Shown one piece after another: positions 12,837 through 28,298 of a stretch of 64,000 nucleotides of DNA. Both the position numbers and the translations under genes were made by a program. The stretch lies in NCBI RefSeq assembly GCF_947501405.1, contig NZ_CANMVK010000004.1:112843-176842 (forward strand), in the 5' to 3' direction. Numbering within the stretch: the stretch's first letter is position 1; every line of letters starts with the position of its first letter. Under the pieces are notes generated by a model. The model saw only the letters and a list, made by a program, of their open reading frames with translations, made no database searches and had not been told where the DNA came from. Source of the stretch: an uncultured Hoeflea sp. Lineage in GTDB: Bacteria > Pseudomonadota > Alphaproteobacteria > Rhizobiales > Rhizobiaceae.

Positions 12837-12960
12837 AGCGGCCAGGTCATCCTCCGCGTCTGCCCGCAAACGTGCTCCGCAAGCGTGAAGCGAGACACCG
12901 GCGCTCGGCGATATCTCGAAACACACCGTAAAGCGCCAACAAAAATGAAAAGATAAAAGT

Positions 12961-13114
12961 GCGATCCACGACGACCGATGGATTGTTCGATCCCGGGAAC
13001 CTACAACGTAGGTGGGCGCCGTGTGACCAAGCCCACGAGCCGGGTCAGGGACAGCTCCCTTAGGATCGATTAAGGCCCCGGGGATTGTGTATCCTGTCGG
13101 GAAGCGCAGATCGC
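12961..13114 (-). ncRNA. ssrS: 6S RNA
   Basis: Complementary ends (GCGATCTGCG / CGTGGATCGC), 154 nt; alphaproteobacterial 6S-like core CCGGGGGCCTTAATCGATCCTAAGGGAGCTGTCCCTG...CCCACCTACG; canonical position between zapA and ygfA. Confidence 0.9.
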
Positions 13115-13163
13115 ATGCCAATATAGGGACGCCCGGACCAAAGCGCCAGATGCCGTTGCGGCT

Positions 13164-26956: not shown

Positions 26957-27145
26957 ATGTTTGCCGATGATGACCGCCCCAAAGTCAAGAAAGCCCATGA
27001 GATCGGCTGCGACCTGACCTTCCTGTCCGCCAATGAACTGGATGAGCGAATCACTCTCCTGAAGCAAGAAATCGTAAGGCTGGAAGCCGACAAGGCGGGC
27101 AAAACCTCCAGTCGCAGCGCTGCGGAGAGCTTTTTCAAGTCATAA
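26957..27145 (+). CDS. DUF1192 small protein
   Basis: HEIGCDLTFLSANELDERITLLKQEIVRLE...SAAESFFK. Confidence 0.88.
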   Translation: MFADDDRPKVKKAHEIGCDLTFLSANELDERITLLKQEIVRLEADKAGKTSSRSAAESFFKS

Positions 27146-27187
27146 TAATCAAGCTTTCACAGCGACTTGGCAGATAGTTTCGCACTG

Positions 27188-27224
27188 TTAAGCCCCGGTT
27201 AAGCTTTACAAGTCTTTACTATAC
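27188..27224 (+). promoter_or_regulatory. CtrA-dependent promoter
   Basis: Perfect TTAA-GCCCCGG-TTAA (27188-27202) in the -35 position relative to TACTAT/CTATAC (27217-27224). Confidence 0.75.
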
Positions 27225-27226
27225 CC

Positions 27227-27323
27227 ATCCAGGCTTCCTGGATTTGACAGTTTGACCGATGGTCAATCTGTTTGACGCCTCCCTGTTAAACTCTTGAGAG
27301 CCGCGCATGCGGCTCTTTTTTTT
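27227..27323 (+). ncRNA. Candidate trans-acting sRNA (three hairpins, anti-SD motif, own terminator)
   Basis: Hairpin 27227-27243, hairpin 27248-27270, single-stranded GCCTCCC 27277-27283, terminator AGAGCCGC-GCAT-GCGGCTCT plus a T run ending at 27323. Confidence 0.65.
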
Positions 27324-27467
27324 CGCCGAGAGTTTGTGTCGCACTTCCAAACAGGGTGATGCAACCCGGTGAAAAGCGCCGGCCCGGCCGCCCTCAAAAT
27401 GGCGCCGCTTTTGCCGCGATGCCTCGCAATACCCCGCAATTCCGGGGGCTCTGAGCATCAATTCACG

Positions 27468-27483
27468 TTAACCCTTTCTTAAC
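27468..27483 (+). promoter_or_regulatory. Perfect CtrA box upstream of rcdA
   Basis: TTAA-CCCTTTC-TTAAC, about 120 nt before the rcdA ATG. Confidence 0.8.
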
Positions 27484-27603
27484 ATTCGGCTTGCCGCACG
27501 GTCGCGAAGGCGGCAAAGTGTTCTTGCTCGATGGCGCTGGTCAGCGTCAGGCGTGCAGCGGACTTGCAGAACCAGTACTTTCGTAATCAGGAATTCGCGG
27601 CAA

Positions 27604-28122
27604 ATGACTGAAACCAGCCCCAATACCGTCAACCTCGCAGATCGCATGGCCAATTCGGCCCAGTTCAAGACGCTCTACACCGAGGGGATGGCGCTGGTCG
27701 AGGAGACCGCAAACTATCTCGACGGACCCGGCCGCACTGCCTCCAAGGCACTGCCGCGGCTGGCCGCCGTTCTCTATGCAGCCGAATCCATGCGCCTGAC
27801 CACGCGGCTGATGCAGATGGCCTCCTGGCTGCTGCTGCAGCGTGCAGTCAACAATGGCGAGATGAACCGCGATCAGGTGATGGCGGAAAAGAGCAAGGTT
27901 CGCTTGGACAGCTTCAATTGCGACCGGTCAGCCCCCGGCTGGGCGGATCTGCCGGAAGCGTTCCGTGATCTGGTGGAGCGTTCGCTGCGCATTCAGAACC
28001 GGGTGGCAATTCTCGATCGCGAAATCTACCGTCCGGACGAGGCCAAGTCCCTCAAGCCCGACAACGAAAATTCGGTTCAGGCGCAACAGCATCTGCTGCA
28101 AACAGTGTTCACAAAGCGCTGA
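27604..28122 (+). CDS. rcdA: Regulator of CtrA degradation RcdA (DUF1465)
   Basis: LYTEGMALVEETANYLDGPGR, YAAESMRLTTRLMQMASWLLLQRA; convergent with rpmE as in other alphaproteobacteria. Confidence 0.93.
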   Translation: MTETSPNTVNLADRMANSAQFKTLYTEGMALVEETANYLDGPGRTASKALPRLAAVLYAAESMRLTTRLMQMASWLLLQRAVNNGEMNRDQVMAEKSKVRLDSFNCDRSAPGWADLPEAFRDLVERSLRIQNRVAILDREIYRPDEAKSLKPDNENSVQAQQHLLQTVFTKR

Positions 28123-28261: not shown

Positions 28262-28298
28262 AAAAAAGCCCGCAGGCACAAGCCGGCGGGCTTTTTTT
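28262..28298. terminator. Bidirectional terminator (rpmE side)
   Basis: A6-GCCCGC...GCGGGC-T7. Confidence 0.8.

Follow-up and report, generated by a model that had tools for sequence, protein, structure and literature searches.

CtrA drives the cell cycle of alphaproteobacteria and is shut off during bacteroid differentiation. Among the small RNAs (sRNAs) tied to this regulator, CcnA of Caulobacter crescentus is activated by CtrA and uses a CCCC loop to pair with GGGG at the ribosome-binding site of ctrA. The authors of that work reported no clear homologue in Sinorhizobium meliloti, yet the Caulobacter CcnA is active there (PMC8959179). The trans-acting EcpR1 and GspR of S. meliloti are tied to the dnaA/gcrA/ctrA circuit (PMC7143759). 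The element described here is an sRNA gene in the gap between a DUF1192 gene and rcdA of an uncultured Hoeflea sp., located in a stretch of 64,000 nucleotides (contig NZ_CANMVK010000004.1, positions 112,843 to 176,842 of the forward strand) which is called the window and whose first letter is position 1. It represents, in Hoeflea, the known family Alphaproteobacterial sRNA BjrC1505 (Rfam RF02356), catalogued since 2008-2012, and its promoter carries a CtrA-type box that is conserved with the RNA. The RNA is probably one of the products of the cell-cycle circuit that has been overlooked as such. EcpR1 and GspR belong to other families and are stress-induced inputs to the cell cycle, whereas the Hoeflea RNA would act on the output side, under CtrA. 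That the host is a Hoeflea species is shown by the RcdA protein of the genome, which is 89-92% identical to named Hoeflea proteins.

The S. meliloti member of this family was predicted and detected as sm84 in the SMc03988-SMc03989/rcdA gap, with a Northern band of ~80 nt (PMC2573895), and appears as SmelC671, 100 nt by RNA-seq, at 2986421-2986520 of the plus strand (PMC2873474). Relatives are known from Rhizobiaceae, Brucellaceae, Phyllobacteriaceae, Bradyrhizobiaceae and Methylobacteriaceae, and ReC71, the Rhizobium etli member, was detected experimentally (PMC3927594). In Methylorubrum extorquens BjrC1505 was seen on Northern blots (bioRxiv 10.1101/2022.01.24.477521), and the RNA was also detected in B. 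japonicum under the same name. Expression of the orthologues is therefore established in these papers. A 2020 review gives SmelC671 without predicted promoter motif and without function, expressed in nodule zone II only (PMC7143759), and a literature search found no published regulator or function for the BjrC1505 family.

The Hoeflea copy matches RF02356 with 58.7 bits against a gathering score of 50 (model positions 1-140 at window positions 27182-27322), and this is the single match in the whole genome, a single-copy chromosomal gene. A model restricted to the RNA body (R1) scores the same copy at 83.9 bits, and the family model identified one copy in 51 of the 61 genera of the host's family. 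The architecture of RF02356, two 5' hairpins, an exposed GACGCCUCCCUG tract and an intrinsic terminator, is present here, and the genomic place equals that of the S. meliloti member, between SMc03988/DUF1192 and SMc03989/rcdA. A sequence-only reading of the window, made before any database search, had left it undecided whether the RNA was already catalogued and had implied that it was new. The Rfam match settles the question, and the implied novelty falls away, the family having been detected earlier as Sm84/SmelC671, ReC71 and BjrC1505. The Hoeflea RNA itself is ordinary; the possible novelty is the deeply conserved CtrA site in its promoter.

The anatomy which that reading had described, a box, two hairpins, an unpaired CCTCCC and a terminator, is present in full in the 458-nt gap between DUF1192 and rcdA, and all these features lie on the plus strand. 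Hairpin 1 (ATCCAGG-CTT-CCTGGAT, 27227-27243) comprises 7 bp. Hairpin 2 (CAGTTTGACC-GAT-GGTCAATCTG, 27248-27270) comprises 10 positions with one T.T mismatch, and in the Hoeflea copy its sequence is atypical for the family while the pairing is kept. The seed is the 17-mer GTTTGACGCCTCCCTGT at 27270-27286, predicted to be unpaired or to lie within the loop of a weak 4-5 bp hairpin. The intrinsic terminator has its stem at 27296-27317, with 9 pairs (6 G-C) in the terminator scan, followed by a run of 8 T ending at 27323. The segment 27215-27323 (109 nt, including the RNA) folds with -38.9 kcal/mol (z = -5.7), and none of 200 shuffles was as good.

Conservation of this structure was examined in an alignment of 74 copies to model R1. 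Standard pairs fill 96.1% of the cells of the modelled pairs, and 17 of the 20 pairs show compensatory changes. By element, the paired cells amount to 96.6% in hairpin 1 and 96.2% in hairpin 2, each with compensatory changes in 6 of 6 modelled pairs, and to 95.6% in the terminator, with changes in 5 of 8. The alignment was fitted to the structure and is hence biased towards it. The contrast with the controls is large: none of 500 shuffles reached the observed values, and sliding the 3' partners lowered pairing to 34-59%. Because of this contrast, and despite the fitted alignment, hairpin 1, hairpin 2 and the terminator are real RNA structure. The seed is conserved as well. The copy in the window equals the family consensus letter for letter, and 27 of 30 copies retrieved with the Rfam model alone carry the 17-mer unchanged, as do at least 120 species of many families, spanning Bradyrhizobium, Brucella, Mesorhizobium, Devosia, Hyphomicrobium, Parvibaculum, Roseibium/Stappia and Sneathiella.

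The CtrA-type box TTAAGCCCCGGTTAA (TTAA-N7-TTAA, 27188-27202, plus strand) ends 24 nt 5' of hairpin 1 and covers about -39 to -25 of the sRNA promoter, over the -35 region as the sequence-only reading had placed it. In the 64 kb of the window the pattern TTAA-N7-TTAA occurs twice, against 0.05 expected from shuffles; the other match, TTAACCCTTTCTTAA at 27468-27482 (plus strand), lies outside the RNA and is taken as the promoter box of rcdA itself, whose separate CtrA box had also been foreseen. Among 73 orthologous copies, at most 90% alike, 40 carry a perfect box and 30 a box with a single deviating letter (70 of 73 in total), and in 63 of these 70 a distance of 23-25 nt separates its 3' end from the first paired base of hairpin 1. 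A perfect box occurs in 0.055%, and a box with at most one mismatch in 0.24%, of random 60-nt windows drawn from this genome. The half-sites are 84-100% conserved (TTAAC ... TTAAG) and six spacer positions are near random, a pattern that reads as the signature of a protein-binding site.

The box is followed by a -10-like element, TTTACT at 27215-27220 (plus strand), positioned relative to the inferred start. It belongs to a block conserved in the alignment, TTTACT or ATTACT 3' of the box across the family, and a TATGACT variant also stands at the -10 place. The promoter scan of the DUF1192-rcdA gap found no sigma-70 consensus promoter and no consensus -35, which fits an activator-dependent promoter. 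Promoters lacking a consensus -35 are typical of activator dependence, for example those Caulobacter promoters in which a CtrA site overlaps the -35. To our knowledge, CtrA is the only alphaproteobacterial regulator that binds full TTAA-N7-TTAA sites, and the ctrA gene is present in the genome (contig C4, 34027-34707). Beyond the host's order, 11 strong matches were obtained from other orders of the class, 10 of them scorable. The box is kept in all 10 (7 perfect, 3 one letter off) and rcdA lies within ~1.5 kb in only 3, the linkage being lost in the other 7. Because these copies keep the box and mostly lose rcdA, the box travels with the RNA and not with rcdA.

Transcript ends were taken from S. 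meliloti, where the rcdA motif TAACCCTTTCTTAAG (2986559-2986573) has mapped transcription starts downstream (PMC3616915). This motif served to anchor six Sinorhizobium loci, fetched via their RcdA protein; none of them is strain 1021 and none matches the published primers exactly, and the spacing is common to all six. On these coordinates the mapped 5' end of SmelC671 (2986421) falls 1 nt before hairpin 1 and the mapped 3' end (2986520) within the U-tail. The Sinorhizobium box TTAACGCGGCATTAA corresponds to S. meliloti 2986384-2986398, about -37 to -23. By homology, the Hoeflea RNA would start at 27226-27227 and extend to 27323, some 97 nt, the length that had been proposed from the letters of the window.

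A CtrA peak obtained in S. meliloti by chromatin immunoprecipitation sequencing (ChIP-seq) is listed at 2986298, overlapping SMc03988, and was assigned to rcdA, whose mRNA and reporter fusion were unresponsive to CtrA depletion (Pini et al., PMC4433202). With the coordinates transferred via the related Sinorhizobium loci, this peak is offset by -86 nt from the sRNA box and by -261 nt from the rcdA box. At other targets the listed peak stands 110 nt (pleC), 94 nt (mcpE) and 109 nt (flaA) below the motif, and at five further targets, known by their promoter windows alone, the offset is about 0 to 160 nt. The peak assigned to rcdA fits the sRNA promoter better than the rcdA box, and this is counted as consistent evidence and not as proof because it depends on how the 'Peak' coordinate was defined. 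Box conservation together with the re-read peak makes the proposed activation of the sRNA promoter by CtrA plausible and well supported. The literature search found no paper stating that CtrA activates the BjrC1505/Sm84 RNA, and no CtrA-depletion data on this RNA.

The same promoter region bears on the limits of the Rfam model. Positions 1-43 of RF02356 correspond to 27182-27224 of the window and contain 14 drawn pairs, which are 42% paired in 68 copies against 43% after shuffling, with slid controls alike. The conserved letters within this 5' domain are the TTAA half-sites, and the domain covers the CtrA box and the -10 region. Probably, then, the 5' boundary of RF02356 takes in promoter DNA, which questions the boundary of the model and not the membership of the Hoeflea copy.

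The favoured explanation, regarded as fairly likely, is an independent gene of the BjrC1505 family, ~97 nt long, with a CtrA site in its promoter, for which activation by CtrA and anti-Shine-Dalgarno action in trans are proposed. Transcription would start at hairpin 1 or 1 nt before it, from a promoter without consensus -35 in which the full CtrA site occupies the -35 place and is followed by the TTTACT -10. Phosphorylated CtrA would activate this promoter as it does where its site overlaps the -35, and transcription would stop at the strong intrinsic terminator. The product would be an RNA of two 5' hairpins and the invariant exposed tract GUUUGACGCCUCCCUGU, whose CCUCCC core and flanks may pair in trans with Shine-Dalgarno regions of mRNAs, blocking their translation.

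A wider proposal is made more tentatively and is possible at best: that the direct CtrA regulon has included the family since ancient times, throughout Hyphomicrobiales and in neighbouring orders, as an RNA output in lineages where no CcnA homologue has been found, and that in many of them it closes a loop on CtrA stability via the ribosome-binding site of the adjacent rcdA mRNA. If true, CtrA has a conserved post-transcriptional arm, a new node in a heavily studied circuit. The S. meliloti peak long attributed to rcdA would then belong to the sRNA promoter, a re-assignment of a published CtrA target that would account for the unresponsiveness of rcdA mRNA to CtrA depletion, and a correction of the 5' boundary of RF02356 would be suggested. 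A CtrA site at a fixed place in nearly all copies, including those away from rcdA, and a fitting ChIP-seq peak make the hypothesis directly testable in model rhizobia.

Several points weigh against the favoured explanation. The Rfam model begins ~45 nt 5' of the inferred start, and its authors may have known a longer transcript. The ChIP-seq argument rests on the meaning of 'Peak' and on a spacing in strain 1021 equal to that of the six Sinorhizobium loci. The public RNA runs covering the window and a Bradyrhizobium diazoefficiens locus were discarded as evidence for the ends, being assembled contigs of relatives that do not resolve them, some maybe of DNA. In Bradyrhizobium the first half-site of the box is TTTA and not TTAA. 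As for targets, the pairing of the seed with the start regions of ctrA, rcdA and DUF1192 in this genome is matched or beaten by 39-84% of random windows. No clear target was found in this genome, where the strongest genome-wide complements are antisense to genes. A single ultra-conserved target of the 17-nt seed was also rejected, its complement (at most 3 mismatches) being no commoner than a reversed control in 21 genomes.

MmgR (Rfam family suhB), AbcR1/2 and NfeR1 are trans-acting RNAs of ~80-120 nt that expose a CCUCCC-type motif, end in an intrinsic terminator and repress translation by blocking ribosome-binding sites. They respond to nutrients (LsrB, NtrC) and are unconnected with a CtrA box. 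Like the tracts of MmgR, AbcR and NfeR1, the exposed core of the Hoeflea RNA, CCTCCC in the DNA at 27278-27283, is an anti-Shine-Dalgarno motif, as the sequence-only reading had proposed for the unpaired tract. The likeness to MmgR consists of this motif and the terminator and does not extend to membership of suhB (RF00519), for which the score is 24.2 bits against a gathering score of 41 with only the CCUCCCU tract and the terminator aligned.

The likeness to CcnA consists of a CtrA site in the promoter and an exposed C-rich tract able to pair with G-rich ribosome-binding regions. The two differ in place, the CcnA gene lying at the replication origin and the Hoeflea RNA between DUF1192 and rcdA, and the Hoeflea seed has no complementarity to ctrA above that of random windows. 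A functional analogy of the family with CcnA is possible but unsupported. The candidate target ctrA was rejected on a duplex of -17.3 kcal/mol, equalled or bettered by 39% of random windows. A scan of the ribosome-binding sites of this genome returned a mixed metabolic list without a theme; from their N-termini the genes are presumably a PhzF-like protein, a GMC oxidoreductase, LacI-type regulators, an ABC binding protein and CobN. A small protein was likewise discarded: a 12-codon ATG frame starts inside hairpin 2 here, and other copies have no ATG there.

The neighbours of the RNA are the DUF1192 gene upstream (26957-27145, plus strand, Pfam PF06698) and rcdA downstream (27604-28122, plus strand, DUF1465/RcdA, Pfam PF07323, E = 1.5e-56). 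Of 139 loci of the host's order, 134 have rcdA as the next gene downstream, in the same orientation, and about half have DUF1192 upstream, likewise on the strand of the RNA. The linkage of the sRNA with rcdA is unusually tight for a trans-acting RNA, and it gives some weight to the view that the RNA chiefly regulates rcdA, either in trans, by seed pairing at the rcdA ribosome-binding site, or in cis, by read-through of the terminator giving CtrA-dependent transcription. CtrA would then promote an sRNA that restrains RcdA, itself a negative factor for CtrA, in a feedback loop, or in a feed-forward loop if rcdA carries a CtrA box of its own. Such a box is perfect in 42 of the 134 loci, nearly all from the host's family; the one in the window, TTAACCCTTTCTTAA, has the same core as TAACCCTTTCTTAAG. 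In 80 of the 134 no good CtrA box stands between the terminator and rcdA, hence the sRNA box is alone there.

Pairing of the seed adds to this view in part of the family. GGCGT, the complement of ACGCC in the seed, occurs in the rcdA start region of 62 of the 134 loci, compared with 2 of 74 DUF1192 start regions and 7% of random windows, and in 15 of 63 after the removal of similar sequences. The rcdA start regions also pair with the seed more strongly than those of DUF1192 (p = 2e-4). Typical forms are GTGAGGCGTTAACCATG in the Bradyrhizobium group and TTGGAGGCGTCGTG in Devosia limi, and in many families (L032, L033, L035, L050, L092, L148 and other loci) the rcdA Shine-Dalgarno reads (G)AGGCGU, a complement of 7-11 nt of the seed. 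These loci are phylogenetically clustered, however, and the counts overstate the independent events. The match is absent from the rcdA start in the Hoeflea window (aatcaggaattcgcggcaaATG), which is among the weakest at -11.7 kcal/mol. Because of the clustering and of this absence, targeting of rcdA is retained for the family, as a rival reading or as part of the explanation, but is not the mechanism in the Hoeflea window. Further against a chief role on rcdA are the strong terminator, the own CtrA box of rcdA here, its own mapped starts in S. meliloti and the persistence of the RNA and its box without rcdA in other orders, and on balance it is unlikely.

The same observations (linkage lost in 7 of 10 copies, terminator, own box and own mapped starts) led to the rejection of a 5' leader or attenuator of rcdA. 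The stand-alone, terminated sRNA gene of the sequence-only reading stands, with the strong terminator and with the box kept in copies that have no rcdA nearby. As a separate observation, AACAGGG at 27349-27355, 25 nt past the sRNA terminator and upstream of the rcdA box, is complementary to CCCUGUU of the seed, and would be relevant only given read-through of the terminator. Contigs of a near-identical relative from two runs, guessed to be RNA, begin at 27559, a point 77 nt past the rcdA box and 45 nt short of the ATG of rcdA; this may be the 5' end of the rcdA mRNA or a mere contig break.

A different doubt concerns the box and not the RNA. TTAA-N7-TTAA overlaps the core promoter, a position also able to repress, and the RNA could be real with the site serving repression by CtrA or binding by another regulator, the promoter being driven by another factor. 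Valverde et al. annotated a promoter of sigma-70 type and Sm84 was seen on microarrays under many stress conditions (PMC2573895), and the promoter catalogue of S. meliloti has no motif for SmelC671, according to the 2020 review (PMC7143759). The missing consensus -35, the ChIP-seq peak at a fitting distance and the lack, as far as we know, of any other alphaproteobacterial protein binding the full site argue for activation instead, so that a box without an activating role is quite improbable. Finally, that the hairpins merely close the DUF1192 mRNA, as its 3' untranslated region and terminator, and have no start of their own, would agree with the lack of a strong terminator in DUF1192 (only a 5-bp hairpin at 27112-27125, inside its coding end) and with some RNA contigs of Bradyrhizobium relatives that run from a point 5' of the box to the terminator, but is very hard to maintain with DUF1192 upstream in only about half of the loci and the RNA and box kept regardless, with the box and -10 element at a fixed distance from hairpin 1, and with an S. 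meliloti RNA of ~80-100 nt whose 5' end lies beside hairpin 1.

Outside the rcdA context, in five copies from other orders (L154, L156, L159, L160 and L161) the RNA and its box are followed, ~290-720 nt further downstream, by a gene for a Cys/Met PLP enzyme (metY-like). In these loci another terminated hairpin element, possibly a riboswitch, lies between the RNA and the metY-like gene. Of 4 such loci, 2 have a leader that matches the seed, L154 and L161, where the leader or ribosome-binding site holds AACAGGGAAGTG, complementary to the seed. As a target for the family metY was rejected, no conserved extended match being present at metY start regions within the host's order. The six Sinorhizobium copies (L163-L168, ~1253-1353) keep the box, hairpins and terminator with a divergent seed, GAUUUUUCUCCCUGUUUUA in place of UUUGACGCCUCCCUGUUAA, only CUCCCUGUU being common to both, which suggests retargeting in that lineage.

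Two further RNA features were identified in the window. A strong hairpin at 28262-28297, resembling a two-way terminator, lies between rcdA and the convergent rpmE (L31, 28321-28545, minus strand) and gives weak chance matches to several Rfam families. A 6S RNA (Rfam RF00013, 79 bits) is located at 12959-13115 on the minus strand.

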